A stretch of 64,000 nt of DNA from a virus: the IMG/VR virus record IMGVR_UViG_3300032271_001847, positions 5,764 through 69,763 of that record, one strand, 5' to 3'. Made by a program: the position numbers and the translations under genes. The notes beneath the pieces were generated by a model. It was not told the DNA's origin. It did not search any database and saw only the letters and a list, made by a program, of their open reading frames with translations. Of the stretch, positions 25,101-55,188 are shown piece after piece. Numbering within the stretch: the first letter of the stretch is position 1; the number at the start of each line of letters is the position of its first letter.

Positions 25101-28100
25101 CCGATCAATGTAGCTTTCAGGTGGTGTTACCATGAGGGGGTCACGGGGCACTATATCAAGCACGTCATCATTGGCGTTGTCGCCGTCGTGATTTCCAAAC
25201 AGTCTTATACGTTGAGGATCGTTGACCATCCTATCCTGCGGCAGTCTGATCTCAACCAGATCGTTGAGATCCGTGGCACCATATCGACCAACACGTAGAA
25301 GCCATTCCTCATAATACTCAAACGTGCTTTTGGCCGGCAATATTGAGGTATTTCTCAGCAGGCTGTCAAGCGAGGATCTTGTACCTTTTTTCTTGATGAA
25401 CCCTTGATAGAATTCAAACTCCGTGGCATCTTCAAGAAGGAGATTCTGCATGTAATCTCGATTTTGATAGCCTATCATGTGCCGAGAGATATCAGAAATA
25501 TCCTTTCTATCCACTACGCTCTGCTTAGATGTTCTTTCAATCAATGCACCCGTGGTTTGATTTATCTCGGAATAGTTCTTTGGCTGGTCAATGTTGAAAT
25601 ACTTCCTAAAATCGTCGGCCGTTTTTTCAAAGTTGCTGGTCATCGTCCAGGTATTGCTGGTGGTATTCTGTGTGATGATGTATCCAGGTGCATCAACCCG
25701 ACCATTCCAGTCGTTTGTCCTATAAGATAGTATCTTGATCCTATCCTGTTTGAGATCATACAAGGGCTGATAGATGACGTCATTAAAAGAGGTCAGGTTG
25801 TCAAAAAACACGGCGTGTTCAATGGTAGTTCTGAAGAGCCTTAATCCATATACACCTTGATCGTTGGTAGCGTTAACCGTTATGGTACCTTCGTTCCTTG
25901 ACACAACAACGTTCTGCGGTTGTATCGGCATTCCGGCTCGATCAATCACAGGATAGGTTCCGGCTACTATGCCATTAACATATTGTATGTTACCAAAGTC
26001 CTGCTTGAACTTGACCATGTCTGCTGACGGACTCAACGCGATGAAAGTACCGTTTGTCCACGATCCTTGGCTCCAGAAAAGGAACTCCTTTGCGCTCTGG
26101 AACCAATCCATCATGCTGTTTGAGTCATTTCCATATTGATCAAACACCCACCCTTGGCTGATGAGCCAACGACCATGTCCTATCAGGAAATCGTACACTT
26201 CCTGCCGGCTGGTAAACGTGGTGCCATACGGGATCAATTTTGTGGTTTTAAGACCCGTTGTGTATTCAATAACTCGTTGGTTGCCGATGATCACGGTGTT
26301 TTTGGAACCACGTGTGTTGGGAGGAATTATGGTAAAGGTTGGATAGATGACGTTGTATCCATATACCTTCCATCCATCTTTTGTTTTCTCAACCATGACA
26401 CCACCATAGTAACTCTCCCCTATGCTGGTGCTGCGGTAAAGGTAGACCTTGATGTTTTCGCTCGGTATGAGCTGGCTGTTGTAGCCAACCTGTCCAAAAC
26501 TATCAACAAGACCCCTAAAGCTGTCCGCATTGACATATCCTGCCATCCTGTGTGACAGCTGAACATCCGACCCCCGTACAACATTTCCACAATAATTGGT
26601 AACATCCAATCCTTGGCTGATCAGGTATTCGGATATCCAATGTTGCAACCCGCAGCTACCAAAATAGGAAAGAGAGGTTTCGTTTGGAATCACGATACCA
26701 TTGGATATCAGGCTAGGATTCTCACGGTGAACATAGAACTGATTGCTCGATCTGCGAGAATTGGTGTCAATGTAAATCCATTGATCATTTACCGTTTCTG
26801 AATACGCATCCATGGTTCGTGTTATGTCCCATGTGTATTCAACAAACCTAGCCGGTTTCATCAGATATCCAAGCTGTGCTTGAACAAATCCATAATCCTG
26901 CGAATTTACCCATGTGCTTTCAATTGGACCGCCGTCACCAAATTCCCATTCAGCTGCTGCATCGTGAACGGAAGGCAAGCTCGAAATGCATCCTGCCTGA
27001 TATGGAGCCAAAAGGTTTCCTTGGTCATCAACTGGTATGCAATCCAGCAAGCCGGGACGTTTCCATTCCTGATGAATTCCTTGTCTCGGACCTTGGCTAA
27101 CATGCCCATCCCGAAGGTCTTCCCACATCAAGGTGTTTCCACGGGTGTAAGGTGCTTCACCATATTGTGAATCCCACCAGGTTGGTTTTTGTGAAAATCC
27201 TAGCATTTCCCATGGATGGGTGTGAGGCCTGTCAGTATCATAAACCCATCGATATATGCCCTGCCAGTGTCCAGGTACCAATGACCCGTTCCTGTCAGTC
27301 ATGTTGCTGTAGTTCCAGGAGAATTGATCGTCAGTGTCGTAACCGGTATTTGCCCGATAGTCAGCCTGTGCTGATATCACCCACTTGTCAAATGCACCCC
27401 TTTGTAGTTGCAGATGTTCGATCCTGGTATAGCTGCTAGTTCTCCATTTACCCGGCGAATACGTCCTAACATCAAACACATATTCTGCTTCTGGGTTCTT
27501 GTATCCAGAAGGAAGGCTGGCATAGAGATCAAGCTCAAATTGCAACCATGCAGCAGCAATTGGATTATCGAGCTGCTCGGGATTGCTAGTCGAGACCTGG
27601 CCGTGCAATATAGACCCGAGCTGTTCGCCTTGTTGGTCAACCATCACGATCCTGCTACCATCGTGCGTTTGTATCGCCATCCGTGGGGTCTTATATGTAT
27701 CATCCATGTAAACTACCGGATAATACGACGGTGTGATTCCTAGTCGGGCCGACGTAGCCGGGACATAGGTAGGACTGGTGCTTGGTATCGAGCAATATGA
27801 TCCCGGAACACCGGATGGTCCACTATTAGCCCACGGACTGCTAGAAGTCTTTCCGATGTTTATCTGTGCAAGTGCTGATGACACCCATTGGCTGATCATG
27901 TACGGATCACACCCACCAGCAACATATGAGGCAGAAAATCCTTGTTTTGTGCTCAGATTGAAGAGGGTTTGTATGAATCTTCCATAAAATCTCTGATAAG
28001 ATCGCTGGGCATATTGCATTGCCATCATTGGATCAGATGGACTTATGGTGCTTATTATGTCTGATAGAGGGGTGCTATTAAGCACGGCAAGCTTTAACAG

Positions 28101-30323
28101 AGTAGCACGATGGTTCAATATGCTACGACCAAGATGTTTCATCTGTGCGGTATCCCTGTAATTGTTCTGTCCAAGGGGTGTGCCGACAATGCCTGGTTGA
28201 TTCTCTATGATCTGAGTAAATTGTTGTAAAAACTGGCTCCTGCTAACCTGTGTGACCGGAAGATTGTTTGGGTTAGCACTGAGATTGCTTGGTATCTCGT
28301 AGAATCCAACCATGATGTCCGGAGCGATTGTATTCCATGTTTTGACTATCAGCCGTGAACCATCTGGTTGGGTAGTTATTAGATTTATCATCGAACCCAG
28401 CATGGTATAATCAGTTCCTTCTACCAATTGGATTGTCTGACCATTTGGTGTGATGACGCTGGCAAATATAGTTGGTAATCCCGTTGCAGATCGAGCAGCA
28501 GGTGCTTGGTCAAGAATGAAGGAAGTCGTTGGTGATACTATCACGAATTCGTTAACGATGTACTGGCGGCTTGATTCAGGCGATTTGTACCACGAATTAA
28601 CGTATTCGTCGGTGGATTGCATCGAAATCTTCGAGAATAGATAACCCATGTAGGTTGTTTCTGTACCACCAATGACATACGAAACGGTATCAATCTCAAG
28701 ATCATTGTTGAACACAAAATCTCCAAATTGATCAAGCTTGGTGTTGATGTTTAATTCGGAGTCAACTGCCTGATTCACATCCGTTGCATAGCTGAACACC
28801 TTGCTGCCTGCAAAACTACTTCCTGGATAAATGCTAGGGTCGTCCATTGCATTACCATCCACATCGTACAGCATGAAAAGAGGTGTTGAAGCACCAAATT
28901 TTTGTTGCCCGTCAGTCCGCCATGTGTTTCCATCAAAATAGAGATTTTGATCCTGGAAATATCCAAACGAGATCGAAACCCTGCTGCCGCGTTCTGGATA
29001 ACTCTCTTCGATCAATGCAATCGGGGCGGTATTGTATATGACGATCTCGACCACTCTACCAGCGGCTACCGGTGACACCATGGTTACTTGTTCGCCCGTC
29101 CACGAATAGGTCAAGGGGGATTGTTGAGTTCCATCAATGTATAACACCATGTGATCAGTTGAGTGTTGATAAGGAGACGTGACAAACACTGATGTTGGAA
29201 CAGAGACCGGATATCTAAGTGTTGCGGGTTCAACCGTATCTATCGACACACGATAGATACGGTTGTTCACCTCCGGATCCGCGTCATTTAAGACAAGGAT
29301 ACGCATGCCATCCCTAAGAGGTATGCCTTGCATGACATAAGATTTTTGTCCAACTATGGTACCAAACACATCTGACAGGGTATTATCAGCAAGATCCACC
29401 GTTCCTTGATCAATCCAACCATATTTCCATATCTCAATTCCAGCGTCAAATTCAATTATCGGGCGCCTGGCCTGGAGAATGGATGGGTCAGGGTAGATGG
29501 TCTTTGACAATCGAACAACATCAAGATGGAACCATCGATTTGACCTGCTCCACTGATTTCCGTCAGGGCTCATTCGAGAAATGGTAACGTAGTTCTTTTC
29601 CTCCAACGCGGCACCCGACCAAGATTCCACATCCCATGGAGACGAATCCCAACTGGGAGATGCGGAGAACGTATTTTCTGATAGTTCAATCCCTCGGCCA
29701 ACGCCCTCGACAAACCATTCTCGGCCGTTTATATCAAGGGTGAGATCATTCATAGGAACTATCTTGAGCCCACTGGTAAAATCAAGCATCGTGGTATCAA
29801 TTGAACCATTTCCGTATCTAACGGCACCGACATACGTGTATGAGATATTGCCCGTGGCGTCATTTAACAGATCAGTTGTATCCAGTAATTCTATCGCATC
29901 TGGACCATTTGGCAACCAAAAATAACTGGAAAAATTGGTAAACTTATCCAGATCAATTGGTGGACTCCATGAATAGTATTCTTGATCAAACAAGCGGTCA
30001 TGGTTGTTAACCAATCCTCCCTGGAATCTCAGCTGTCCGATGAGATCCTCGTAGAACATGGCATGGGTGATCTTACCACTGAGAAGATCCGTACTAACCA
30101 CCGTCGGGGATAGCTGGTAATCCGACCGAGATTTAGTCGGTTCGTTTATGTAAAAATCCTTTGCCGGATCATACCATGACGGACGATTTCCAATGTACCC
30201 GCTAAGAAATTCCACGCTTTCTGGTTGGAAAAGATGGTCAACCGTTGCAGCAAAGATCTTTGTTAGATTTTCTGTCTGCAGGTAGCTCGGGAGTAGCTCT
30301 ATATTGCGACGCTTATCAGCCAT
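19116..30323 (-). CDS. Giant baseplate wedge / structural protein (3735 aa, gp7-like position)
   Basis: Follows gp6-like gene; LLP.YLQT N-terminus, EAKPYH..IRE motif, Trp-rich repeats. Confidence 0.75.
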   Translation of the reverse strand: MADKRRNIELLPSYLQTENLTKIFAATVDHLFQPESVEFLSGYIGNRPSWYDPAKDFYINEPTKSRSDYQLSPTVVSTDLLSGKITHAMFYEDLIGQLRFQGGLVNNHDRLFDQEYYSWSPPIDLDKFTNFSSYFWLPNGPDAIELLDTTDLLNDATGNISYTYVGAVRYGNGSIDTTMLDFTSGLKIVPMNDLTLDINGREWFVEGVGRGIELSENTFSASPSWDSSPWDVESWSGAALEEKNYVTISRMSPDGNQWSRSNRWFHLDVVRLSKTIYPDPSILQARRPIIEFDAGIEIWKYGWIDQGTVDLADNTLSDVFGTIVGQKSYVMQGIPLRDGMRILVLNDADPEVNNRIYRVSIDTVEPATLRYPVSVPTSVFVTSPYQHSTDHMVLYIDGTQQSPLTYSWTGEQVTMVSPVAAGRVVEIVIYNTAPIALIEESYPERGSRVSISFGYFQDQNLYFDGNTWRTDGQQKFGASTPLFMLYDVDGNAMDDPSIYPGSSFAGSKVFSYATDVNQAVDSELNINTKLDQFGDFVFNNDLEIDTVSYVIGGTETTYMGYLFSKISMQSTDEYVNSWYKSPESSRQYIVNEFVIVSPTTSFILDQAPAARSATGLPTIFASVITPNGQTIQLVEGTDYTMLGSMINLITTQPDGSRLIVKTWNTIAPDIMVGFYEIPSNLSANPNNLPVTQVSRSQFLQQFTQIIENQPGIVGTPLGQNNYRDTAQMKHLGRSILNHRATLLKLAVLNSTPLSDIISTISPSDPMMAMQYAQRSYQRFYGRFIQTLFNLSTKQGFSASYVAGGCDPYMISQWVSSALAQINIGKTSSSPWANSGPSGVPGSYCSIPSTSPTYVPATSARLGITPSYYPVVYMDDTYKTPRMAIQTHDGSRIVMVDQQGEQLGSILHGQVSTSNPEQLDNPIAAAWLQFELDLYASLPSGYKNPEAEYVFDVRTYSPGKWRTSSYTRIEHLQLQRGAFDKWVISAQADYRANTGYDTDDQFSWNYSNMTDRNGSLVPGHWQGIYRWVYDTDRPHTHPWEMLGFSQKPTWWDSQYGEAPYTRGNTLMWEDLRDGHVSQGPRQGIHQEWKRPGLLDCIPVDDQGNLLAPYQAGCISSLPSVHDAAAEWEFGDGGPIESTWVNSQDYGFVQAQLGYLMKPARFVEYTWDITRTMDAYSETVNDQWIYIDTNSRRSSNQFYVHRENPSLISNGIVIPNETSLSYFGSCGLQHWISEYLISQGLDVTNYCGNVVRGSDVQLSHRMAGYVNADSFRGLVDSFGQVGYNSQLIPSENIKVYLYRSTSIGESYYGGVMVEKTKDGWKVYGYNVIYPTFTIIPPNTRGSKNTVIIGNQRVIEYTTGLKTTKLIPYGTTFTSRQEVYDFLIGHGRWLISQGWVFDQYGNDSNSMMDWFQSAKEFLFWSQGSWTNGTFIALSPSADMVKFKQDFGNIQYVNGIVAGTYPVIDRAGMPIQPQNVVVSRNEGTITVNATNDQGVYGLRLFRTTIEHAVFFDNLTSFNDVIYQPLYDLKQDRIKILSYRTNDWNGRVDAPGYIITQNTTSNTWTMTSNFEKTADDFRKYFNIDQPKNYSEINQTTGALIERTSKQSVVDRKDISDISRHMIGYQNRDYMQNLLLEDATEFEFYQGFIKKKGTRSSLDSLLRNTSILPAKSTFEYYEEWLLRVGRYGATDLNDLVEIRLPQDRMVNDPQRIRLFGNHDGDNANDDVLDIVPRDPLMVTPPESYIDRKFALRSSYAPNTSTDNPTTGYAMLGETTWLAATSSDLLALYDNQKTTSTPVKNRDTVWQFITNTGTWMTWVLTPAYAQVDLTIPSNISGAPTVITTASPHGLSDGDICIIYGISGVSAINGTYTVSSVTPLTFQIDVTTYEQGTGGTIMVYRPTRFADVFSRDSGEPPGGWIDGNLAYVDDGGIVEGAWTVYKRAQGRWTAFRQQEYKVDASLIKQNKLFDSISGMQLTTLNYYDPAKGFISGRADAEINYKTDYDPAKYNNGNNTKYALSPTESWSSAQLGQVWWDLSAVRYIDYEQGDGKYRMQQWGKIAPGTSIDVYEWIRSPIPPSDWSSNVAQGQSITDGGRSYIPSGSIRNPTSPSWTELIEYGANGTSTTYYYFWVKNSGMSPASPSRALTTEQIANLIEQPSTDDKPWWAAISDDSLIIGNYASRLNGTRTIQQITYTSTPNDSNIYGEWELVREGDSMSPISTKLWDKVKTSLITFDGLGNDVPDYHLNDLQKYGTEIRPRQSWFMDRVAASKVFVDTTNQLLSTSATPLIDDASKAGWENYFYAAEPIPPQSGNWDYRVQDMLQRDALVGAIVPGQVVLVEPVSENGNLWTMWEYQTNGVEWELIRKQGYNTANYWNYVDWYMTGYGSYTTIKATVQTPADLSTVENAYSGFVVKVLNNGVNKWQLFSFSGKWTLVGQQDGNIEILPSIYKWSKNFGGFDGTAFDYAPFDLTASVEFGNIIDGISNAIYGYPNSIEKNTLFFSMISYAISEQHQIDWAIKTSNIVLKGFNQDLAKNSLFAADTIDSIIGFINEAKPYHGKIREFVYGKSSIDTSSVSLVDFDAPPGWLADPLTEMPGEGTAERAYYDTYQSWKDNYISNPELIRNLNTTLVFDRISTPALVPGWGSAWSSFGWESESTDQTFGAMTRIEEYYEPSPGMLPKIVADLISGAVYKGTVLSALGFNMQEGWGHSPWGFIGWDADKAAIEAYLDQIIQGGAIPNYDSAIGNGISRRFPLLRHAVNPNSMVVWSDGKLRTYALEWTVPTHAVSARIIEGGFGYQPGDLLDVTAGTGVISARIQVLSTNHGSITDVELVGTGSYSTVLPGPYPASYPLLYPGTGMHAVIEIDWACQEIEFVTPPSSSSVPNIYVLYAGTTFEPAPLAESDHVIEGNEFIQPNVDDDHPEELYPFKARDALMMDVTSRAAGNRPLVSSRVYITDGLSDQFDLLIAPQSDQAVMAYLDGTPLVAGVSGDFVINYDTNHMVFINPPAPGTLSVTCIGNGGGGGRMVKNSYVVATGRNYKPGDTIQLATTIGIEPTVLKVISVQASGYRITNPGKGYSVGNQLILTGTGGTSTSDTVLKVISVGTMGEILGLSVLSPGSWTVTPNSPYSWKTNRSKKKINVDAVIDAVWGVDLLGVVLPGLWARLPVQPLVQLPVGYGSATNTNGTGLTVNVDYTGEMEKYEYVGNGTRTDFTIPTPFAGVLVTINGVLTPINSLLTNGIRLLPAPAYGSVVVITAFDTQQFSTVVETVLSITDGLLLTYHLSQQPYSTLPTCVSTTVRKNGKLMKTPLIQQILGLGSPFEYPITIDLTGASVEIFVDSVHLIGGVDYLISNNMIWFSSRPDIGSNITIVATSPDTEYTISGQYITFKSGSIVAGDTVLVTTYSQDMDYEFHEEVFDETTTGIYILAAMPYDISTISVWFDGKHMVPGRDYVVTRAPAVNGWSKIEWDTYQWDMPRGETMRVELTPTDGWDRAAWDTDGWDMVRKVVISYMTGKPERPAIAWRTLTSGDQIISTVIDPMRETTILGNVYTYSSSIEIANYDTVSIPTHNGIGYVYINDEMIGYREIQLAPTTQHPSRAFLTGIRRNQNGTSGTPRSRYNALFYNGDGYTVDFATESATQALSTTVWKNDMIMVEGSDYVFVDLPGGRYVRFSTPPQVGYKNVKIVALNVDSVQTNLSHVSGSTVIDAGDAVRMPWGYNWEPSPNGLQYNDSTQARFILSHSFGG

Positions 30324-33300
30324 TGCTTATTCCTAGAACGCTTTCGGTGAGTGATGGTACTATTTGGACATCGGTTACCCGTGCTCCACTAATGAATATC
30401 TCGTCGGCATCGCACGCGATCTCAAAGAGATCACCAAATTTTGCCTGTGCGTTTAGTGGTGTTATCACCACCGATCCAACAATGGTGGCAAGAACCTGAT
30501 GTATGTATGCAGCCAACTCCGTGAAGAAAAAACTCTGTCCAAAATCCCAGTTTGAAAGGCTGAAATATTGGTTTACGGCCTGTATTACCAAGCTCTTGAC
30601 CTCATTATCAGTAACCGTGGTCCCGGGTGTTTTGACAACCTTGAATTTTGCTTGATATTCTGGTGCGGCCTGGCTACCAACGATCACCTTGTAACTAACA
30701 GGATGCCATATCATCTGATCAGTCATCTGCTTGTATTGTTCAAGGTCAACAAACGCCGCCTTGAGCTCAGCACTGCTAAGTGGCTGTGGCATGGTTGCCA
30801 TGCTACCATTGGTGGCTATCCAATTCCTGAGATCAGTATCATACGCGGAAGTTAATGTGTACATATCGATTATGTTCATAACCGCCGGATTGATGCGCTG
30901 ATCAGTCGGAGCAAAATGCTTCCACAAAAAAGAAAGATTGTTTCTTCCTATTCGCATCTTATAATCCGGGGTCACATCGATAAAGGTATTTTGTGCATAT
31001 TGATAGAAAACGCCATTGCTGATGATGTATGCCACTTCACCGGTTGTCCAGTTGGCATCAGTCGGAGTTGGTAACAATCCTGGATTTGAATAGATGCGCG
31101 ACGTTGGTATGACAACCGGATACCAATACTGGTATCCATCGGACGAGGTTTTCCTATTCCAGAATATCATCCTGCTTGGTATCATCTGCGGATCGACTAT
31201 TTCATTAAACTCATCCGGGTCGTCTGGAATTCCATAGTTGTCTCCTTCCCACATCGTGAGACGCACACTGCGAGGATCAGCAAATCCGTCTGGATATATC
31301 TGTTGTCCAGTGATTTGCCATAGATAATCTTGAGATAGTGCTAAACCGGTTGTTGAATCCGGATTGATGCTCAAAACACTGACATAATCAAGCTGTGCCG
31401 TATTGGTATTTGGATCAAACACCTTCTTCGTGTTTTCAAAATAAAAACGATTTTGTCTCTCGCTTTCAAAGATGTATCTCATCGCACGAGAATATATCCT
31501 CCACCCTGCACCGGTCCACACAACCTTGATCATCCAGCTTGCATCCTTATTGGTGCTACTGGTATTTCCAGCAAAATCAAGGCTAAAACTAGAACTCGCG
31601 CTAAGATTATCCGACGTGATCACCTTCCATGTAAGATCAGATGCATTGTATCTGACTCCAAAAGTAACATGCTTCTGCAATTGTGCCGCTATGGCAATGC
31701 TTTCATCCTGTGTAAACGTGGTACGGAAAGATGCGATAACATATGATGGCTGGTATCCCTGTCCGAGAAGCGTGCTAATGGTTATGGCACCTTCTCCGCC
31801 CGACACCTTTCCGGAAAGATTGATACCAGTACCATCGCCGATGACACCTATCAATGAAGCTAGGGTGTTTTTTCCGGTAGATGGATTTGAAAACCCAACC
31901 AATGATCCTTGCGTTACATATTGAAGCGGGCTGTTGACCGGCGCGTTTGTACCAACGGCAACAGCAGTAGATCCGGTGAAAAAAGCACCTGTGCAACTGG
32001 TAGTAAGGCTCGTGATGGTCTTCCATACGTATCCAGACCCAATATCCACGCGGGGATAGCTGTAATAAAAGAAATTCTTTAGCTCAAGCGCCTGTGTTTG
32101 GCTATTAAAGCTGCCATTGACCAACGGCTGTATCTGCGTATTGACAACAACCAATGCATTGGTTCCAGGGGAATTGACCACGTCTCTCATGTTGAGATCG
32201 TTTTCCATGTAAAGGATTCCGTCAGTTCCAAAAACATTCAGATCGTTATAGCTACCGGTAGGATCATTTAGATCAAGGTATCGGCTCTGTCCGCTATAAA
32301 CACGATTCACAGCCTTGTTCTTTAATATCCTTGCATCCTGCAACGGAAAGAGATTGTAATCTTCACCGTTGACCATTCGATCCTGGGTGTAGTATGTCTG
32401 GGGAGCGTTCTGTGCAATGCGATAGTTATCCTCGGTGCTCTGTGCATTGTTCACGGTGTATTGAAGATTGGTGGTGAACGCCACGTTCCATGCGTTGTTA
32501 AGATTGTCCACATATGCAAATGCAAACACCTGATTTGAAATGTCAGAAGGACGTATCTGATAGGTGAGATTATTGCTAATCCTATGCCATACCCTAACTA
32601 TTCCAATCGGAACGTTTCCAAAATTTCCGTCAGCAAATCGCACGCTGATTTGATCATTTCCATTGCTGTCTCTCGTGACCACGCTATAAATGTTGCGTAT
32701 GTTCTTATCAATGCTGTTGTAGATGACATTAAATCCGTTAACGCTAGGAACCTTGGTCCATTTCTTGCTCACCAACCCGGTGCTATCTATCGTTTGAACC
32801 CATACGTCGGTCTGGTTAACACCGTCCGTGTCAACATCTATCACGCGGTTTGCTAGTGGGAGGCTGCACTGATAGTCCTTGTACTGCATGCTACCTTGTT
32901 TAAAATAAAGGAAGAAACCGGTGTTAGCACTGGCATATCCATTACCATCGGCACGATAAACGATGTTCCAACTGTTCAACGGATCAGGGTCAATCTCATA
33001 AAAATTTCCAGAATTTGCTAGAGATGTGGTGCTACCTTCATTGAATGTTGCATTTGCCAATTCAAGCTGTACGTTGTTCCCTGCAATGGACGCGGTAAAT
33101 GGAATCACGCTAAGAGGTATTGAAACGTTGTTCATCTCATATAGCTGGGTTTCAACACCTGAAACCAATCCCGATTTTGATGGATTTCCAAACGTGTTGG
33201 TTGAATTTAGTGTGGCATTCATCACCAATATAAATTGTTCAAACCAATCAGGGTTGTTTTGATCATTCCAGATGATTTGCACGTTTTGAAGATTGGTTCC

Positions 33301-33705
33301 ATATGAATCGTATATCGGCTGGTCAGTGATCACAGCGGTTATCTTCACCAACCCGCTTGCCGGAATGCATCGCTGTGGCTGATAGTTGAGCATGCGTGCT
33401 AATCTGAAGATGCTTTCACGGCGAGTTGCCGTGTCAAGGAAGTTCTCTCGTGTATTGAGATCCATCCTGAAAGCCAGACTTTGTCCAAGATATGCTAACA
33501 GATCGATCAATGCAACAAACTCGCTGCTTTCGACCCAATCGTTAAAATCCTCCGGATAATTCAACCGTATGTAGTTGATCATCGCAGTGCGTATCGAACT
33601 AAAATCATATGCGTTGAAATTGATCTGCGTGAACGCCGTGTATATGACGCGCCAATCCTCAGCGGCAAAGAGTTGACTCTGTCTCAGTTGTTGTGTGATG
33701 GCCAT
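30316..33705 (-). CDS. Baseplate wedge subunit (T4 gp6-like)
   Basis: YDF..IR, DFND..ESSE, NTRENFLDTA.RRES, FADGNFG.VP, QDRMVNGEDY. Confidence 0.9.
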   Translation of the reverse strand: MAITQQLRQSQLFAAEDWRVIYTAFTQINFNAYDFSSIRTAMINYIRLNYPEDFNDWVESSEFVALIDLLAYLGQSLAFRMDLNTRENFLDTATRRESIFRLARMLNYQPQRCIPASGLVKITAVITDQPIYDSYGTNLQNVQIIWNDQNNPDWFEQFILVMNATLNSTNTFGNPSKSGLVSGVETQLYEMNNVSIPLSVIPFTASIAGNNVQLELANATFNEGSTTSLANSGNFYEIDPDPLNSWNIVYRADGNGYASANTGFFLYFKQGSMQYKDYQCSLPLANRVIDVDTDGVNQTDVWVQTIDSTGLVSKKWTKVPSVNGFNVIYNSIDKNIRNIYSVVTRDSNGNDQISVRFADGNFGNVPIGIVRVWHRISNNLTYQIRPSDISNQVFAFAYVDNLNNAWNVAFTTNLQYTVNNAQSTEDNYRIAQNAPQTYYTQDRMVNGEDYNLFPLQDARILKNKAVNRVYSGQSRYLDLNDPTGSYNDLNVFGTDGILYMENDLNMRDVVNSPGTNALVVVNTQIQPLVNGSFNSQTQALELKNFFYYSYPRVDIGSGYVWKTITSLTTSCTGAFFTGSTAVAVGTNAPVNSPLQYVTQGSLVGFSNPSTGKNTLASLIGVIGDGTGINLSGKVSGGEGAITISTLLGQGYQPSYVIASFRTTFTQDESIAIAAQLQKHVTFGVRYNASDLTWKVITSDNLSASSSFSLDFAGNTSSTNKDASWMIKVVWTGAGWRIYSRAMRYIFESERQNRFYFENTKKVFDPNTNTAQLDYVSVLSINPDSTTGLALSQDYLWQITGQQIYPDGFADPRSVRLTMWEGDNYGIPDDPDEFNEIVDPQMIPSRMIFWNRKTSSDGYQYWYPVVIPTSRIYSNPGLLPTPTDANWTTGEVAYIISNGVFYQYAQNTFIDVTPDYKMRIGRNNLSFLWKHFAPTDQRINPAVMNIIDMYTLTSAYDTDLRNWIATNGSMATMPQPLSSAELKAAFVDLEQYKQMTDQMIWHPVSYKVIVGSQAAPEYQAKFKVVKTPGTTVTDNEVKSLVIQAVNQYFSLSNWDFGQSFFFTELAAYIHQVLATIVGSVVITPLNAQAKFGDLFEIACDADEIFISGARVTDVQIVPSLTESVLGISNG

Positions 33706-34105: not shown

Positions 34106-34202
34106 ATTAGCTGTATTTATCATGGTAAGAAGGTGGAGATTTTACGGTTATTGACAGCCATTGATACCAATTAGCACACTGAACGTCTAAGATAGGGATA
34201 AC

Positions 34203-34445
34203 ATGCCAACAGTTGAAGAAACCATCCTTGGATATCTCAAGGATTACACATCGCCAGGATTTACTCCGGCATTAGAACACCGTCTGCTAGAGGATCTAAA
34301 TCTTGATAGCCTTGACATAGTCGAGCTTTCCATGCATCTGGAAGAATCACTCAATATCATTCTCGATGATGACGATGGCATACGAAAATCCAAAACGGTT
34401 GGCGATCTTGTTTCTTTCATACGTAAACGCACCGGGTTACAATGA
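34203..34445 (+). CDS. acpP: Acyl carrier protein
   Basis: 80-aa acidic protein with DLNLDSLDIVEL...LEE and TVGDLV. Confidence 0.88.
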   Translation: MPTVEETILGYLKDYTSPGFTPALEHRLLEDLNLDSLDIVELSMHLEESLNIILDDDDGIRKSKTVGDLVSFIRKRTGLQ

Positions 34446-34636
34446 TTACACGATCCGATCAATTGATTGAGGACATTGCCATGGCCATCTATTCAGATAG
34501 CTATACCCAATATGGCACTTGCAGTCCGTTGCATTGGCAAAAAACAAGTGAAACCCAACGAGAGTTTTGCCGAGGGCAAGCAAGGGCAGTGATTGATGTG
34601 TTGGTATCAAAAAACATGTTGGTAGTAAAGATCTAA
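34442..34636 (+). CDS. Hypothetical protein
   Basis: ATGA-coupled to the ACP gene. Confidence 0.6.
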   Translation: MITRSDQLIEDIAMAIYSDSYTQYGTCSPLHWQKTSETQREFCRGQARAVIDVLVSKNMLVVKI

Positions 34637-34648
34637 GCAGGGGGCTTC

Positions 34649-49002: not shown

Positions 49003-51849
49003 ATGTTGGTAATCAAGAGCGTGACCATGCGCAACTTCCTCAGCTGCGGTAATGTCACACAGACCGTCAAGCTTGACCGTAACGGCATCAATCTCGTCAT
49101 GGGAGAGAACCTTGACATGGGAGGAAATGGCAGCAGGAATGGTGTTGGCAAGGCCCAACCTCTATCTTCCAAAATATATACCCCATCTGGGTGGGTATCT
49201 ATGAGAGATCTTGAAATTGGTTCAAAGATATATGCCGCCGATGGCTCGATTTCCGCAGTTGTTGGAATTTATCCACAAGGATCTATTCCAACCTATAGAA
49301 TTCAATTCTCTGATGGCCGATCAACTATCGCCAGCGGAGATCATCTATGGTCTATTTACAGCCATCTTTTTAACAATGGCAGAAATGACAGAACCAAGGT
49401 GATCTCTACCATGGAGATGATTAACATAATCAAGGCTTCTAAAAAGAATAGACCAAATTCTAAATCATCAAATTACCTGTATGTTCAAACGTTTTCCCCA
49501 GAGACCATAGATGACATAGATCTTCCAATTGATCCATATCTATTAGGTGCCATGATTGGCGACGGCAAGCTGAGCAATGGTATTGGATTTACATCAAAGG
49601 ATGAACATATCATCAGATGTGTCTCACATCTATTAGAAAAAGACTGGAATTGTTATCTTAAACAGAAAAAACATTCACCTATTCAGTTTGGTATCAAAAT
49701 GATTAGACAAAAAAAGGTCAATCCATTTAGGGCCGAAATAGATCGCCTAGGTCTTGGTGTACAATCATATCTAAAATTCATTCCATCTTGTTATATGGGA
49801 TCATCTGTAAATCAAAGAATTAAGCTTCTGCAAGGGTTAATAGATACAGACGGATACGTATCTGGCAACGGATCAATATCTTTTACTACAACTAGCCAAA
49901 AGCTGGCCGACGATGTTGCATATCTAGTAAGAAGCATTGGAGGTCTTGCTCATGTTAAATTAAAGAAGAACTGCACTTATATCAATAAAGGTATAAGGAT
50001 ACCATGTAGAGATTCATACACCGTAGCTATCAGATATCGTAATCCATCAGCGCTAGTGTCCTTGCCAAGGAAGCTAAATCGTATATCCAGCAACTATCAA
50101 TACAAGGATCTAAGGCTACAGGTAGTATCCATTAAACCAGTAGGTGAACAGGAATGCCAATGCATAATGATAGATCATCCGTCTCACCTGTATGTGACGG
50201 ATGATTTCATCGTTACACACAATACAACATTATTGCAGGCCATATCATTTGGCCTATACGGACAGAGTCTCACCAACATACGGGTCAACAATCTCGTCAA
50301 CAACATCAATCAAAAAAACATGATGGTAAGCGTTGAGTTTGAGAAGGATGGTCATCAATATAAGATCGAGCGAGGTCGTAAGCCAACGTTCTTCAGGTAC
50401 ATCGTTGACGACAAGAACATGGACGAAAGCACCGACGAGGCACAGGGCGAAAGCAGAGAGACGCAAAAAGACATTGATCGCATACTCGGTATGAGCCATA
50501 CCCTGTTCAAACACATACTAGCACTCAACACATACACGGAACCATTCCTTAGCCTAGGCGGCGGAAAGCAACGAGAGATCATCGAGGAATTGTTGACCAT
50601 CACCTTGCTGAGCCAAAAAGCCGAGAATCTCAAGGAAATGGTCAAGACCACCAAGTCATCCATTGAGCAGGAAGAGTTCCGGATACGCACCATCAAGCAG
50701 AGCAATGATCGCATACGTGCAACGATGGTTGATATACAACGTAAAGCTGACACGTGGCAAAAGAAACACATAGATGATCTAAACGAGATGGCACGTTCCA
50801 TAGAAAATCTTGAGATGCTTAAGATTGAGGAGGAAATACAGGCACATCGCGATCTCGAGCTGTACAACCAGCTGACCTCGTCACGCTCTCACGTGGCAAG
50901 AGATCTTGCGATGAAAACCAGGCATTTACAACAGCTTAACTCACAGTTGACAACGTCGATCTCCAGCTATGATCGTGCATCAAAACATGAATGTCCAACC
51001 TGCGGACAGGGAATACATGATGCTGAGCACGAGCATATACGTATCGGACTTGAAAGCAAGATCATGGACCTGGATGTACAGATAACATCTGAACAGGTTG
51101 ATATAGATCGCAGCAAGGCACAATTGGAGGAAATTGACGGTATGCTGTCTGGAATGACACGACCCGCCGTGGTATATGGTAATCTTGAACAGGCCCTAAA
51201 TCACAGGAACACCCTTGATCGCCTGACTAACGAAATAGAACGTGCTGCCGGATCGTTAAATCCGTATGTTGATCAGAACGACAGCCTTGCAGGAACCATA
51301 CAGGAGGTCACATACGATGAGCTCAACAGTTTATCAAAATCCAGAGAACATCAGGAGTTTTTGCTCAAATTGCTGACCAACAAGGATAGCTTCATCCGCA
51401 AAAGAATCATCGATCAAAACCTGGCATATCTTAACATGCGATTGAATGAATATCTAGATCGGCTTGGGCTGCCCCATCAGGTTAGGTTCGTCAATGACCT
51501 CTCTGTTGAAATCAGCCTGCATGGACAGGATCTTGATTTTGATAATCTCAGCAGGGGTGAAAGAACCAGGCTGATACTCGGACTCAGTTGGGCATTCAGG
51601 GACATCTTTGAAAACACCAACCATGCGATAAATCTGGTATTCGTTGATGAACTTCTTGATGCCGGAATGGACCCGCAAGGGCTTGAAGGATCCGTTGAGG
51701 TCCTGAAAAAGATGGACAGGGAAAGGCACAAGAACGTGTTCATCATCAGCCACCGAGAGGAATTGGTAACCAGGGTCAGCAACGTTCTGACCGTGATCAA
51801 GGAGAATGGATTCACCAATTTCTCCTGGGATTACACCCCGGCCGTTTGA
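49003..51849 (+). CDS. Rad50/SbcC-like ATPase (gp46) containing an intein
   Basis: NFLS.GN, Walker A NGVGK|TT, zinc hook CPTC, LSRGE, VDELLD, ISH. Confidence 0.95.
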   Translation: MLVIKSVTMRNFLSCGNVTQTVKLDRNGINLVMGENLDMGGNGSRNGVGKAQPLSSKIYTPSGWVSMRDLEIGSKIYAADGSISAVVGIYPQGSIPTYRIQFSDGRSTIASGDHLWSIYSHLFNNGRNDRTKVISTMEMINIIKASKKNRPNSKSSNYLYVQTFSPETIDDIDLPIDPYLLGAMIGDGKLSNGIGFTSKDEHIIRCVSHLLEKDWNCYLKQKKHSPIQFGIKMIRQKKVNPFRAEIDRLGLGVQSYLKFIPSCYMGSSVNQRIKLLQGLIDTDGYVSGNGSISFTTTSQKLADDVAYLVRSIGGLAHVKLKKNCTYINKGIRIPCRDSYTVAIRYRNPSALVSLPRKLNRISSNYQYKDLRLQVVSIKPVGEQECQCIMIDHPSHLYVTDDFIVTHNTTLLQAISFGLYGQSLTNIRVNNLVNNINQKNMMVSVEFEKDGHQYKIERGRKPTFFRYIVDDKNMDESTDEAQGESRETQKDIDRILGMSHTLFKHILALNTYTEPFLSLGGGKQREIIEELLTITLLSQKAENLKEMVKTTKSSIEQEEFRIRTIKQSNDRIRATMVDIQRKADTWQKKHIDDLNEMARSIENLEMLKIEEEIQAHRDLELYNQLTSSRSHVARDLAMKTRHLQQLNSQLTTSISSYDRASKHECPTCGQGIHDAEHEHIRIGLESKIMDLDVQITSEQVDIDRSKAQLEEIDGMLSGMTRPAVVYGNLEQALNHRNTLDRLTNEIERAAGSLNPYVDQNDSLAGTIQEVTYDELNSLSKSREHQEFLLKLLTNKDSFIRKRIIDQNLAYLNMRLNEYLDRLGLPHQVRFVNDLSVEISLHGQDLDFDNLSRGERTRLILGLSWAFRDIFENTNHAINLVFVDELLDAGMDPQGLEGSVEVLKKMDRERHKNVFIISHREELVTRVSNVLTVIKENGFTNFSWDYTPAV
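49153..50223 (+). mobile_element. Ala1 class 3 intein with LAGLIDADG endonuclease (357 aa)
   Basis: Starts AQPL, ends VTHN before Thr; DHLW, CQC, PYLLGAMIGDG, LLQGLIDTDG; AT-rich. Confidence 0.92.
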
Positions 51850-52444: not shown

Positions 52445-53233
52445 ATGCACATGGAACAAAAACCCAGAACACCCACGCCACGGACGATTTATCGAAAAAC
52501 ATTTGAGGTGGAAACCACCAAGGATGTTGACAATCATCTCGGATACTTCATCAAACAGGAGCTAGGTTACTACAATGCACTTGTTGAACAACTAGGACCA
52601 AGATTACGGGCATTTCCACAAGAACTGCTTGCCATCAAGGATCGAGAGAAAAAGCTATGGGAGGCATGCGCCGAGCACGCCGTTCCTGCACAAAAGCTTC
52701 TCGATCATCCTGTTAATGAATGGCCGGAAAAACTGCGATTGCTTGAAAGCCTTGTCTATGACCAGGCTGGAGAACCAAAGATAACATCTGCCCAGGCCAA
52801 CATACTCAGCATTGCCGCAGCACCGGCTCGCCTGCATCCACAGGTGAGAAAAAACATCAGCTCAGAGATTTTGAGATACATGATCGGACAATCCGACTCA
52901 GTGATCGCATCTCAGAAGACTGAGGGCTTCCGATCACCGATACAACTGCTAACCACGCACACGCTTGAATCAAAAAGGCATCTACAGATACCAGGATCTT
53001 TGGTGAAAATGTCCTACGATGCGGGATCGAACTCCACCCATATATCAATTCCATACACCAAGGAACCATTGGTGGTACACGGTATCGACATTACCGAAGC
53101 GCGTTTCAATGTGTTGATCGTTCGTGCATCAGATTCAAATGCAGCTGGTCGCAAATGGTTCGTGGATCTCAAGGATTCGACAAGCCGTTACATGCTGAAT
53201 CTCACCGACAGCGTTGAGCGAAGGAAGAAATAA
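52445..53233 (+). CDS. Hypothetical protein, possibly TnpB-like WED/REC module without RuvC
   Basis: KTFEV...GYYNALV at N-terminus; LQIP..ISIP..LIVR..GRKWFV strands at C-terminus; promoter TTGACT..TACACT at 52397-52426. Confidence 0.6.
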   Translation: MHMEQKPRTPTPRTIYRKTFEVETTKDVDNHLGYFIKQELGYYNALVEQLGPRLRAFPQELLAIKDREKKLWEACAEHAVPAQKLLDHPVNEWPEKLRLLESLVYDQAGEPKITSAQANILSIAAAPARLHPQVRKNISSEILRYMIGQSDSVIASQKTEGFRSPIQLLTTHTLESKRHLQIPGSLVKMSYDAGSNSTHISIPYTKEPLVVHGIDITEARFNVLIVRASDSNAAGRKWFVDLKDSTSRYMLNLTDSVERRKK

Positions 53234-53235
53234 AA

Positions 53236-53267
53236 AGCCGGTATGGAAACAATGTTCCATACCGGCT
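53236..53267. terminator. 13-bp stem hairpin with U-tract on the minus strand
   Basis: AGCCGGTATGGAA / TTCCATACCGGCT, preceded by an A-run. Confidence 0.7.
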
Positions 53268-53351
53268 GCGCTCGGCTCAGTTATATGGAACGTTGGCTCA
53301 TGACGTCCATGTCAGTATTATGCATTCAACTCCATGACAGGTCTATAACGA

Positions 53352-53636
53352 ATGAAGAAATTCTTTCCTAAAAATGCCAAGGCCGGATTGCCAAGGGTCA
53401 ATAGATCCAGGAGCATCCGTCCACGATATCAGGATCCTGGTGCAACATCAGGCGTGGATTTACGCAAGGAGTTTAACATCCTCATGGAGGAGAAATATAC
53501 AGACTTGCCACAGAACGATCGCAACATACTGTGGACTAAGATAGGCTCAATATTGATAATGCAATCAGGCTCCCAACCAATTAAGAACAGGCTCATGAAC
53601 GCGCTCCAACAAGCTCACAAATCCCTCCTCGAATAA
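53352..53636 (+). CDS. Possible hypothetical protein
   Basis: 94-aa ORF, no clear RBS. Confidence 0.35.
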   Translation: MKKFFPKNAKAGLPRVNRSRSIRPRYQDPGATSGVDLRKEFNILMEEKYTDLPQNDRNILWTKIGSILIMQSGSQPIKNRLMNALQQAHKSLLE

Positions 53637-53665
53637 ACACAAGATATCCATACTGGCATAATAAT

Positions 53666-54110
53666 GGTGGTGTTGCCACCTAGTGAAAGGATAACGAACC
53701 GGTTATCACACTCACTATCAGGGATGTTGCTGAAAGCCCTGGCCGAAAAAATCACAAAAAGGACCACGATGGCCGTGTGACAACACGCCCGTGGCACACG
53801 TCACCGCCTCTGCATGGCCGACGTGTGGCTTGGTAAACCATAACCGAGCGTGGGATAAGATCCCGAGAGATACATCCGTATGTTGGAATTAGGCGCTCCG
53901 CCAACTGGCCAGTTTGGCCTAGGATGATGCAGCATGGTCGACGACTCATCAGAAGCGAACCTATTCTTTTCCCCGCAAGGGGAGAAGAATGGCCTCCAAT
54001 CTTTCAGAATCAAACAAATAAATCCATATGTATGCTGGTGTTGATAGTGATATTGATGAGCTTGCGAATCAATATCACTATCAACACGCATGGACGCTGT
54101 GCGTCCATGC
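53666..54110 (+). ncRNA. Candidate large structured non-coding element (RNA or origin)
   Basis: About 12 consecutive stem-loops, a GCAA tetraloop with G-U pairing favouring the plus strand, and terminal 20-bp and 10-bp perfect inverted repeats. Confidence 0.6.
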
Positions 54111-54112
54111 AA

Positions 54113-54337
54113 TCATCCTATCAGATTACCACCTTTTTGTGGACTCATCGATGCATAGTGTTTTTCGATGACCTTGCTGAGTATCTTGCGCTGCTCAGCT
54201 GATAGCTGGTGTGCATCATCAAAGCTAATACCACCTTGCATGTAGAAGGTAAGCGTGCCCACCTCCTGCGTTATGGCCTTGCGATTTGATTCCATGGTTT
54301 CCAGCATGTCGGTTATTCTACGTGGATCGCCCGTCAA
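54113..54337 (-). CDS. Small baseplate-assembly-associated protein
   Basis: YMQGGISFDDA..LS.EQR; ATGA-coupled to the gp26-like gene. Confidence 0.7.
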   Translation of the reverse strand: MTGDPRRITDMLETMESNRKAITQEVGTLTFYMQGGISFDDAHQLSAEQRKILSKVIEKHYASMSPQKGGNLIG

Positions 54338-55188
54338 GAGCGTTTGCCGAAAAAACTTGAAGGATCAAAGCTAAGGGTGTCTTGCCACTGATGGCCACAA
54401 CCCGCACAGACCACGCCAAGCTCCTTTGGAACCCCAACGTTGTTCAGCTTGTTCACGGCTTCTATCACCATGTCCGCTTGTGGCTTGCTGATGCCCGTTA
54501 GCCACTCGTTAATGTGCTCTTGGTCCGTGACTGTGATGTTTTCCTTGAGCAACACGATCTTCTCCACGCTTCGGCTCACCAGCACGAATGTGATCTTGCT
54601 CAATCGATCCACGCTTTCTCCAAAGATGCTGGCCTTGGCCATGTCATCCATGTCCTTGTTGTTTGACTCGATAGCCCGTATCAGTCGCTCCTCCTCAAAC
54701 TCTCGCTTGATGAACAGTTGTCTCATTTCAAAATCATAAGGTTTCACATGGACCTCAAGATCGTCACCAAATTTCAACACAAGATCATCAGGGTTGACAA
54801 AGCTGGTGCTATCAAGCAGTTGCTGGCAGTCCATATCAAAGCTGTTCTCGTGTCCGCAACTAGGGCACTTCCTGTCATAATCGGCCTTGCCCCCGGTTGT
54901 CGCTGCTTTGAGCGCGACGAAGATGGCTTCAAGGTCAGGCAACATCAATCTCTTGACGTTTTTAACGTCTGGTACGCAGTTGATGATGACCTTCTCCAGC
55001 GACTGTCCATTTAGCATGGCGTCAGGAGTGTTGAGTAGTATGTCATCGAGGGCAGTTAGGGCATGCACCGCAAGTTCCCCGTCTTCGGTAACTGACACCT
55101 CTTCCGGTTTGTACCATCGTCCTTGTGTGGGTAATCTTACGTAGATCGATGGTTGCTTGAAGTATCTCTGTAAGGGGTTATTGACCAT
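54334..55188 (-). CDS. Baseplate hub assembly chaperone (gp26/gp51-like)
   Basis: NPLQRYFKQP.IYVRLP, TPDAMLNG, two CxxC, FDPSSFF. Confidence 0.8.
   Translation of the reverse strand: MVNNPLQRYFKQPSIYVRLPTQGRWYKPEEVSVTEDGELAVHALTALDDILLNTPDAMLNGQSLEKVIINCVPDVKNVKRLMLPDLEAIFVALKAATTGGKADYDRKCPSCGHENSFDMDCQQLLDSTSFVNPDDLVLKFGDDLEVHVKPYDFEMRQLFIKREFEEERLIRAIESNNKDMDDMAKASIFGESVDRLSKITFVLVSRSVEKIVLLKENITVTDQEHINEWLTGISKPQADMVIEAVNKLNNVGVPKELGVVCAGCGHQWQDTLSFDPSSFFGKRS

Follow-up and report, generated by a model that had tools for sequence, protein, structure and literature searches.

R, a conserved and pseudoknotted non-coding RNA family of huge T4-like phages

Here we describe R, a structured RNA encoded on the plus strand (53649..54011, ~363 nucleotides (nt)) of a 64-kb window, that is, the whole stretch of DNA analyzed, which is a piece of the 69.8-kb IMG/VR virus record IMGVR_UViG_3300032271_001847 (CheckV completeness 16%). 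R is a new family: a conserved, plus-strand, pseudoknotted non-coding RNA of huge phages. Sequence comparison suggests, as the best explanation, that the family is ancestral to a clade of T4-like phages of 450-520 kb, and we cautiously favor the view that R is an autonomous trans-acting structured RNA, whatever its exact chemistry. The element reaches from a conserved CAUA in front of helix P1 to the end of the second copy of a short motif, and these limits were placed where conservation stops in alignments A3, A4, A9 and A11. It is bounded by a plus-strand open reading frame (ORF) of 94 amino acids (aa; end 53636) and a minus-strand ORF of 74 aa (end 54113), and the GC content of its region is 0.54 compared with 0.44-0.49 in the flanks.

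A preliminary description of this DNA had listed ten stem-loops over 53666-54000 (~330 nt) as a candidate ornate non-coding RNA. All ten were found in the sequence where they had been placed, and nine are kept in relatives through compensatory changes: GGTGG/CCACC, TAGTG/CACTA with GATAAC/GTTATC, CAGGG/CCCTG, CCACG/CGTGG with CGTGT/ACACG, CACACGTC/GACGTGTG, GGGAT/ATCCC, GTTGG/CCAAC, GGCC/GGCC and the GCAA-capped terminal hairpin. The remaining one, GCTTGGT/ACCGAGC, is unsupported, as both sides changed in one of its seven pairs and two pairs are broken in nine sequences each; its strands instead serve P7 (3-bp TGG/CCA, 100% paired) and the pseudoknot PK2 (GAGCG/CGCTC). There is a structured RNA in the proposed interval, the true conserved element being larger (~53649 to ~54011), and the earlier list lacked its closing helix CTGGC (53653-57)/GCCGA (53742-46) and three pseudoknots. 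The region had also been called the largest gap in the window, which is fair: the other long gap (34124-34648, between ORFs of at least 90 aa) holds ORFs of 80 and 64 aa.

The structure model, comprising ~15 helices and three pseudoknots, was drawn from alignments by eye and with RNAalifold and was then tested on tool-made alignments. It is supported by A4, a plain MAFFT (G-INS-i) alignment of 21 sequences that was fitted to no structure. In A4, 82.4% of 1912 cells are in standard pairs compared with 68.7 ± 0.6 in shuffles (0/500), both sides changed in 71 of 93 pairs compared with 48.5 ± 3.2, and the covariation score is 0.432 compared with 0.202, the shuffle control being no probability for related sequences. 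Sliding the 3' partners by 1-3 columns left 39-48% paired with covariation scores of 0.105-0.132. Model-fitted alignments, which lean towards the structure by construction, gave 88.8% paired and 41/44 pairs changed on both sides for the 5' half (26 sequences), and 83.8% and 32/42 for the 3' half (27 sequences). Two half-covariance-models recover R in 26 and 27 of 33 sources and find no R in loci L007, L009, L012, L020 and L002. Many unpaired nucleotides of R are invariant.

The 5' part of R is a four-way junction (53653..53746) that is closed by P1 (53653-57/53742-46) and holds P2 (53666-70/53676-80), P3 (53681-85/53713-17) with P3a inside it (53690-95/53702-07), and P4 (53719-23/53737-41). 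P1 is 96% paired in A4, where four of its five pairs changed on both sides, and 95% paired in A11 (26 sequences). Compensatory versions of this helix include UCAGC/GCUGA in L005, CCAAC/GUUGG in L053 and GUGGC/GCCAC in L112. The corresponding values in A4 and A11 are 85% and 92% for P2, 76% and 81% for P3, 83% and 86% for P3a, and 87% and 91% for P4. A competing pairing of GGCC (53741-45) with UGGCC of the 3' tail (53990-94) is 83% paired, is broken in L019, L043 and L048 and was rejected as weaker than P1; it is a possible alternative conformer.

An A-rich joiner with an invariant AAAGGA links this junction to P5/P5a and P6/P6a. P5 (53764-68/53790-94) is 99% paired and covaries in 5/5 pairs, while the enclosed P5a (53774-78/53783-87) is 68-72% paired. 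P6 (53795-802/53820-27) is 85% paired in A4 and 95% in A11 with all eight pairs covarying, and contains the weak P6a (53806-08/53816-18; 51% paired). The central domain (53831..53926) is made up of P7, PK2, P8, P9, P10 and P11. Its first helix, P7 (53831-33/53838-40), is the 3-bp hairpin mentioned above and is fully paired in A4. P8 (53852-55/53861-64) is paired at 75% in A4 and 80% in A9; for P9 (53873-77/53922-26), which encloses P10 and P11, the values are 99% and 95%, for P10 (53882-86/53901-05) 96% and 97%, and for P11 (53907-10/53916-19) 81% and 95%.

The terminal hairpin P12 (53963-74/53979-90) carries the GCAA loop. It is 68% paired in A4 and 83% in A9, with 8/12 pairs changed on both sides and the upper 6 bp paired nearly always, and no T-run follows it on either strand. 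P13 (span 53936..53961) is probable and the weakest part of the model: GGUCG (53936-40) would pair with CGA(A)CC (53956-61), leaving a bulged A at 53959. By eye, compensatory changes that conserve this bulged A are seen in L003 (GGCCG/CGG(A)CC), L017 (GACCU/AGG(A)UC) and L023 (GGCGGA/UCCG(A)CC), and a hairpin in the P13 region is predicted in most of 21 single-sequence folds.

Since pseudoknot loops are not column-aligned, the three pseudoknots were tested by comparing the duplex energy of cognate partners with that of permuted partners among 16 representatives, using 5000 permutations. PK1 joins CUGCA in the terminal loop of P6 (53810-14) to UGCAG just 3' of P9 (53928-32); it is 84% paired in A4 with 5/5 pairs changed on both sides, and its cognate duplexes reach -9.61 compared with -5.29 ± 0.57 for permuted ones (0/5000 as low). 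The pairing is rewritten as CAUGCCGUG/CACGGCAUG in L017, UAGACA/UGUCUA in L008, UUUGGUA/UACCAAA in L023 and GCCUGUC/GACAGGC in L112. PK2 joins GAGCG (53846-50) to CGCUC inside the P10 loop (53894-98) and is 100% paired in the 21 sequences of A4 and the 26 of A9, with 4/5 pairs covarying and duplex energies of -7.28 compared with -3.81 ± 0.48 (0/5000 as low). PK3 (span 53731..53755) connects the P4 loop (~53730-33) with the A-rich joiner after P1, just before AAAAAGGA (~53752-55). It has only 3 bp in the window; most relatives have 4-6 bp, for example UCCGU/ACGGA in L017, GCUCU/AGAGC in L016 and GCGA/UCGC in L008, and its duplex energy is -3.94 compared with -2.62 ± 0.37 (1/5000 as low). The unaligned loops explain why PK3 is only 48% paired by A4 columns. 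As controls, the P4 loop was combined with the 3' segment of PK1 (-3.91 compared with -3.30 ± 0.45; 476/5000 as low) and the P6 loop with the joiner (-3.21 compared with -3.29 ± 0.37; 2968/5000 as low).

Among the outcomes that the preliminary description had named as speaking against an RNA are folding no better than shuffled sequence and a lack of covariation, and the opposite was found for both. The helices covary among the collected relatives as described above, and the plus strand of 53637-54010 folds at -138.5 kcal/mol compared with -107.6 ± 5.5 in 100 dinucleotide shuffles (z -5.59, 0/100 as good); for the refined R (53649-54011) z is -6.02, again with 0/100 shuffles as good. The minus strand of 53637-54010 gives a z of -2.22, with 4/100 shuffles as good. 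Some pairs of the model are G-U in most sequences (columns 190-227, for instance, are G-U in 12/21), and the plus strand is favored because such conserved G-U pairs would be C-A mismatches on the other strand. The earlier preference for this strand on account of G-U pairs is borne out by the cells of the modeled pairs, 120 of which are G-U compared with 64 that are A-C. ARAGORN found no tRNA or tmRNA in the window, in agreement with the statement that the region is not a tRNA.

The region was rightly taken to be non-coding, as substitutions in R lack codon periodicity. Between the window and four close relatives, they are distributed over the three phases as 115/115/111 (p 0.95), compared with 476/216/133 at third/first/second codon positions in the gp26 gene. 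Furthermore, the lengths of 107/127 gap runs in R are not divisible by three, and R homologues vary in the strand and length of their longest open frames. A scan of 53200-54400 for intrinsic terminators found nothing terminator-like on the plus strand; on the minus strand its matches inside R are short stems of 5 bp, two of which belong to P5 and one to P2.

Relatives were gathered from the gp26-like protein, for which 167 homologues at E <= 0.001 were found among 769 candidates, some of them on contigs of 450-512 kb. Alignment A1 of 35 gp26 homologues led to 36 IMG/VR loci. In many of these the R stretch is ~70% identical by blastn and as conserved as the gp26 gene, and an nhmmer profile found R in most of the 36. 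Further R loci were supplied by two IMG/VR pattern scans from conserved blocks; among the 42 matches of the second scan, L110, L111, L114, L115, L117, L129, L132 and L134 lie inside coding DNA and were discarded as chance. Tallying contig names against nhmmer matches places R on ~50 distinct IMG/VR contigs, with a set of 25 distinct main-type sequences plus the divergent clades L112/L128, L049/L070, L022 and L035. Two complete relatives, G001 (452.8 kb) and G002 (518.6 kb; terminal repeats), each carry a single copy, and the host clade of R consists of T4-like phages of 450-520 kb. By gp26, the nearest cultured phages are Salmonella Munch/7t3/SE_PL and the Cronobacter GAP32 group at 33% identity. 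The region had no blastn match in 50,697 GenBank phage records, and of nine pattern matches in 185,579 prokaryote species genomes none was confirmed by nhmmer even at E <= 10.

The statement that the RNA belongs to no known family held against Rfam 15 (4227 families), whose models include GOLLD, ROOL, OLE, RNase P, tmRNA, group I/II introns, HEARO, IS605-orfB and RAGATH motifs. There was no match at gathering score in the whole window and none at E <= 1 in seven homologous loci, and matches over 53200-54500 in E-value mode (E <= 10) were at chance level. The best sub-threshold match inside R is CRISPR-DR57 on the minus strand of the terminal hairpin, at 22.3 bits compared with a gathering score of 39. 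In the titles and abstracts surveyed of the literature on structured RNAs, ornate RNAs and jumbo or huge phages, R is not described.

Our view of how R works draws on its relation to two genes upstream of it. Gene W (52451..53233, plus strand) encodes 260 aa, its ORF being open from 52397 (278 aa), and is co-oriented with R. Gene S (53352..53636, plus strand), found in a subset of relatives, encodes a basic 94-aa protein and lies between W and R. W, S and R were mapped onto the loci and onto the 36-row gp26 tree, of which 33 rows are assessable; L002, whose branch is very long and which has none of the three, was set aside, as were L027 and L118, whose loci are cut. R is present in 29/33 rows, from the deepest clade (L112/L113) to that of the window, and absent in 4/33 at two places on the tree, the L007/L009/L012 clade and L020. 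All four R-less rows keep W; their contigs are fragments, 5-13% complete, and R could be located in another part of the respective genomes. W stands beside R in 18/29 R-bearing rows, with S in between in the window type. R occurs without W in 11/29: the six-row L037 clade, L024, L022, L035 (a locus that covers only ~0.7 kb upstream of R) and L049/L070. A W profile found nothing on the complete 518-kb G002, a member of the L037 clade that has R.

In W-less phages R retains every helix. In the L030, L023 and L112 clades its start lies between a few and a few tens of nucleotides past the W stop codon, and overall R is kept while the upstream genes vary between W plus S, W only, S only and neither. 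R and W are each maintained alone, since W-less R rows and R-less W rows exist. Their adjacency may be inherited gene order or the trace of a common origin instead of a present-day dependence.

A second feature that bears on function is a motif present twice. Copy 1, CUCAUCAGAAG (53945-55), is located in the P13 loop, and copy 2, AAUCUUUCAGAAUC, in the 3' tail (53991..54011, plus strand), where conservation ends at 54011. The P13 loop (CUCAUCAGAAG) and the 3' tail (CUUUCAGAAUC) share one core, with AUGGYC before each. Within every lineage the two copies match each other, and between lineages they differ, with parallel change in six lineages: the shared core is (A/U)UCAGAA in the window type, ACCAGAA in the L037 group, ACAUGA in L030/L023, ACAUGAAG in L049, AUCAAGAAGUG in L022 and CCCUA(U)ACGAAA in L112. 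No complementary partner of the motif within the RNA is kept across lineages, and no pairing partner for 53996-54011 was found. The simplest reading of these sequences is that the same outside partner would read both copies.

Two candidate pairings of the motif were set aside. A codon- or anticodon-like site for tRNA is disfavored, as the match of AUCAGAA to the anticodon loop CUCUGAA of a relative's tRNA-Gln(CUG) is limited to 5 nt, and in some lineages the shared core of 8-11 nt is longer than an anticodon loop. The P4 loop forms a perfect 7 bp with motif copy 2 in the window, and this match is lost in relatives. All S-bearing lineages carry a (Y)CAGAA motif, and lineages with other versions lack S directly upstream of R; as this match is confounded by the kinship of the S-bearing lineages, we treat it as a lead and not as evidence.

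In the mechanism that we favor, R folds into a compact body consisting of the 5' four-way junction (P1-P4), two long hairpins (P5, P6) and the central domain (P7-P11), with PK1-PK3 locking the three parts together. Transcribed from the plus strand, it would form the 3' portion of a W-S transcription unit and would act in trans as a stand-alone fold, either as a ribozyme-like core or as the core of an RNA-protein particle. The two copies of the lineage-specific motif, presented single-stranded in the P13 loop and in the 3' tail, may serve as recognition sites for two copies of one partner; a protein dimer and a complementary nucleic acid are both conceivable in this role. This function would be independent of W.

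W itself leads to the best surviving alternative. The protein has no Pfam or PHROG family, and leads in the ESM Atlas are TnpB/IS605 OrfB-like folds. Its AlphaFold2 model, computed with 31 homologues (A5), has a predicted local distance difference test score of 88.2 and a predicted template-modelling score of 0.85; in it, a single beta strand precedes a helical bundle (residues 24-156), which is followed by a beta barrel (177-241) and a basic tail. In a Foldseek search of the PDB the best matches were almost all Cas12f, Cas12m, CasLambda, Cas12k, Cas12g and TnpB, led by CnCas12f1 (8hr5_A; E 5.8e-4, prob 0.99). ISDra2 TnpB (8exa_A) matched at E 0.065 and prob 0.91, and the template-modelling score by target was 0.51 for the TnpB entry 8ex9_A, in which only WED and REC are resolved and RuvC is unresolved. 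The model shows the arrangement WED(beta1)-REC insertion-WED(beta2-7), as in ISDra2 TnpB, where REC is inserted between beta1 and beta2 of the WED barrel according to the part of PMC10097598 that describes this topology.

At the family level, W has 188 cluster representatives at E <= 0.001, and the best 150 of the 188 are all 71-345 aa long. A profile of 39 diverse members had Fanzor1 as its best PDB sequence match (E 0.0073), and Pfam found no TnpB domain in these 39. The confident model thus suggests that W corresponds to the WED and REC half of a TnpB/Cas12f-like protein, with the RuvC/TNB lobe absent altogether. With WED and REC only, W seems the most reduced TnpB/Cas12 derivative among those we found described: in the portions of the literature on nuclease-less TnpB relatives that were covered, no WED-REC-only form is described, and the supplements of PMC10691335 and of the TldR preprint may hold a RuvC-less clade like W.

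Because W lacks RuvC/TNB and guides of the TldR type adjoin their genes, a particle of W and R is an obvious hypothesis. R would then be a guide-RNA-like partner of W, analogous to an omega-RNA or a TldR guide RNA, in a complex that binds DNA without cutting it and, for example, represses host or phage genes; W, a TnpB/Cas12f relic reduced to WED and REC, would bind the R scaffold, and the variable sequence that follows ...UCAGAAUC (from 54012) would be the guide. The TnpB-type topology of W, its type V Cas12/TnpB matches and the Fanzor1 match fit this idea, as does the position of R immediately 3' of W on the same strand, where S alone separates the two in the window type. According to the section of the TldR preprint consulted, TldR proteins, which are nuclease-dead relatives of TnpB, function with guide RNAs whose genes adjoin their own, and long 3' untranslated regions (UTRs) behind inactivated tnpB genes are read as guide RNAs in the relevant part of PMC10691335. 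In addition, the sequence past the conserved 3' end of R (beyond 54011) varies between relatives.

Speaking against a guide for W are the complete G002 with R and no W, the 11 R-bearing rows without W and the four rows with W and no R, and the persistence of the full R structure where W is absent. No protein with PF01385 or PF07282 was found in the relatives G001, G002 and G005. R is also 2-3x the size of the functional ISDra2 TnpB RNA scaffold, given as 116 nt in an excerpt of PMC10097598, and no Rfam family matched it. No pseudoknot with the nucleotides just before the putative guide was found, and the 3' tail has no match of at least 14 nt elsewhere in its own 69.7-kb record or in the 452-kb relative G001. 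We regard a guide-RNA role as a minority possibility that deserves to be kept in view.

A more RNA-centered version of the W-R particle strikes us as unlikely. R and W would form an RNA-guided DNA-binding particle in which the variable 3' tail serves as guide and R replaces the structure, and perhaps the chemistry, of the lost RuvC lobe, while WED and REC of W would read the target-adjacent motif and the heteroduplex. If this were true, R would work alone in W-less lineages, as a ribozyme-like effector.

It is quite improbable, in our estimate, that R is a cis-acting element in the 3' UTR of a W-S mRNA, where it could serve as a stabilizer or exonuclease block, as a terminator or as an insulator between convergent units. 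R does lie at the 3' end of the plus-strand unit in every case, facing the convergent gp26-p74 genes, and hairpin-rich DNA is common between convergent genes. However, ~15 helices, three pseudoknots and many invariant unpaired nucleotides exceed the needs of a terminator or stabilizer, and on the plus strand no T-run stands behind any hairpin of R. R is, moreover, kept despite changing upstream genes, and R-less relatives manage with units ~30 nt apart.

We consider it very improbable that R is a divergent member of a known large class (group I/II intron, RNase P, tmRNA, GOLLD, ROOL or OLE) missed by covariance models. Its size and pseudoknot content are comparable to those of RNase P RNA and group I introns, and Rfam models can miss divergent phage members. 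Against such a membership stand the empty Rfam searches of the window and of the seven loci and a helix order that presumably fits neither the group I intron fold, with its P3-P7 pseudoknot, nor the RNase P fold, with its P4 pseudoknot. R interrupts no gene, R-less relatives have intact neighbors, and G001 has its own tmRNA elsewhere. Equally far-fetched is an action of the hairpins at the DNA level (replication origin, packaging or recombination site) or a chance cluster: the region is GC-rich relative to its flanks and rich in inverted repeats, but the fold is asymmetric between strands, numerous pairs persist in a G-U form that exists only on the plus strand, three long-range pseudoknots covary, and conservation in ~50 contigs excludes chance.

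Several observations weigh against the favored view of R as an autonomous trans-acting RNA. Where a W-type gene is present together with R, it is always directly upstream and co-oriented, and a position downstream of a TnpB-like gene is the layout of TnpB/TldR guide RNAs, which by analogy argues for an RNA-protein role. The evidence for recognition at the two motifs is their parallel sequence change, and the same pattern would arise if the copies underwent gene conversion or formed a shared tertiary motif; the divergent homologue L035 lacks the copy-1 loop. P13, which would display motif copy 1, is only 54-60% paired by alignment columns because its register differs between lineages. A sigma-70-like match at 53634-53662 (with TG) would place the start inside P2 and cut off P1; this match is unconserved in relatives. 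The ends of R, its promoter and its expression are read from sequence, and the limits given above for the model-fitted alignments and the shuffle control apply to the structure as well.

With respect to transcription, another sigma-70-like match is found upstream of S at 53293-53321 and could drive an S-R transcript. Just past the W stop codon (53236..53267) lies a strong terminator-like hairpin with a perfect 13-bp stem. It has a T-run, TTTTATTTCT, behind it on the minus strand only, and would stop leftward antisense transcription through R and S. No plus-strand terminator was found downstream of R. The sequence CATACTGGC was dismissed as a repeated phage promoter motif, with 16 matches at up to one mismatch compared with 13.7 expected, one of them exact. 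Between R and the convergent p74-gp26 genes are two hairpins, 54038-54087 (18-bp stem) and 54088-54110, with no T-run after either, and both are probably outside R. Their stems vary among relatives. The loop of the first, GAUGAGCUUGCGAAUC, is conserved in the closest relatives only, with identity across the window, L004, L005 and L006. The loop part UGAUGAG is complementary to motif copy 1 (CUCAUCA).

S could be placed in no Pfam or PHROG family, the Atlas gave no usable lead for it, and its homologues lie directly upstream of R in many loci. A 185-aa ORF upstream of S in W-less loci was considered as a hidden W and rejected (hhalign probability 0.2%). The gene content of the window is T4-like and includes genes for the gp26 baseplate hub (PF12322), an SbcC-like gp46 with an intein, a RusA/PDDEXK resolvase and a tape-measure-like protein. 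The small ORF after gp26 (54113-54337, minus strand) was found in every locus examined; in relatives it encodes 63-75 aa, and in many of them it ends inside a conserved hairpin, CUGAUGAGCG...GCUCAUCA. The SbcC/gp46-like gene (49003-51849, plus strand; 948 aa) has LAGLIDADG and Hom_end matches at residues ~260-325, and PHROG 'terminase/primase' matches over residues ~45-446 of its product look like intein matches; it is probably an intein-containing recombination nuclease gene. An ORF of 3735 aa at 19116-30323 (minus strand) is followed by one of 1129 aa at 30316-33705. The relative G001 encodes 43 tRNAs and a tmRNA (321051-321206, 111695-112033, 378822-414497; loci L085-L107). Two adjacent tRNAs among these have the anticodon CUA (ARAGORN label Pyl), i.e., they are amber suppressors, a sequence feature that hints at TAG recoding in this phage group.

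The non-coding content of very large phages is nearly unexplored. To our knowledge, large natural RNAs with intricate pseudoknotted folds are rare, and nearly all of those we know of with a solved function are ribozymes or the cores of RNA-protein machines (RNase P, group I/II introns, tmRNA, HEARO as IscB guide). If R acts alone, it is a candidate for a new class of ribozyme or structural RNA. If R and W cooperate, they would make up a minimal RNA-guided DNA binder in which RNA stands in for a protein lobe, and such a cooperation, if true, would bear on the evolution of RNA-guided systems and on compact genome-targeting tools. R is short enough for in-vitro transcription, chemical probing and cryo-electron microscopy, and the model predicts which compensatory mutants to make.

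Among known systems, GOLLD, ROOL and OLE measure ~580-800 nt compared with the smaller ~360 nt of R, and GOLLD and ROOL are often phage-borne. Like R, they are large non-coding RNAs with many helices and pseudoknots that were found by comparing intergenic regions, and their function is unclear or partly known according to the portion of PMC12286853 that covers them. R differs from all three, which form homo-oligomers, in having no sequence or model similarity to them and in being restricted to a single clade of T4-like huge phages, where it occupies one syntenic position.

The IscB omega-RNA (HEARO) sets a precedent as a large ornate RNA that proved to be both the guide and the structural partner of a small transposon-derived protein and that takes the place of an absent protein lobe. 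The fold of IscB, an HNH/RuvC protein, is unrelated to that of W, and HEARO, which is in Rfam, has no match to R. TnpB omega-RNA/reRNA, TldR guide RNA and Cas12f single guide RNA resemble R in lying 3' of a gene for a TnpB fold and in being co-oriented with it, which for R holds in 18 of its 29 rows, and further in being pseudoknotted and in varying past their 3' end. In contrast to these guides, R is much larger and its neighboring protein lacks RuvC/TNB; R and the protein also occur apart, and no target was found in its own record or in G001. Nor was a guide-adjacent pseudoknot found in R, a feature formed by the nucleotides just 5' of the guide that is said to be common to Cas12 and TnpB guide RNAs in the passage of PMC10097598 on this point. 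RNase P RNA and group I introns differ from R in their helix order, and R has no match to their models and no flanking exons. R resembles them in size and likewise has a four-way junction, pseudoknots of long range and a large number of invariant unpaired nucleotides.

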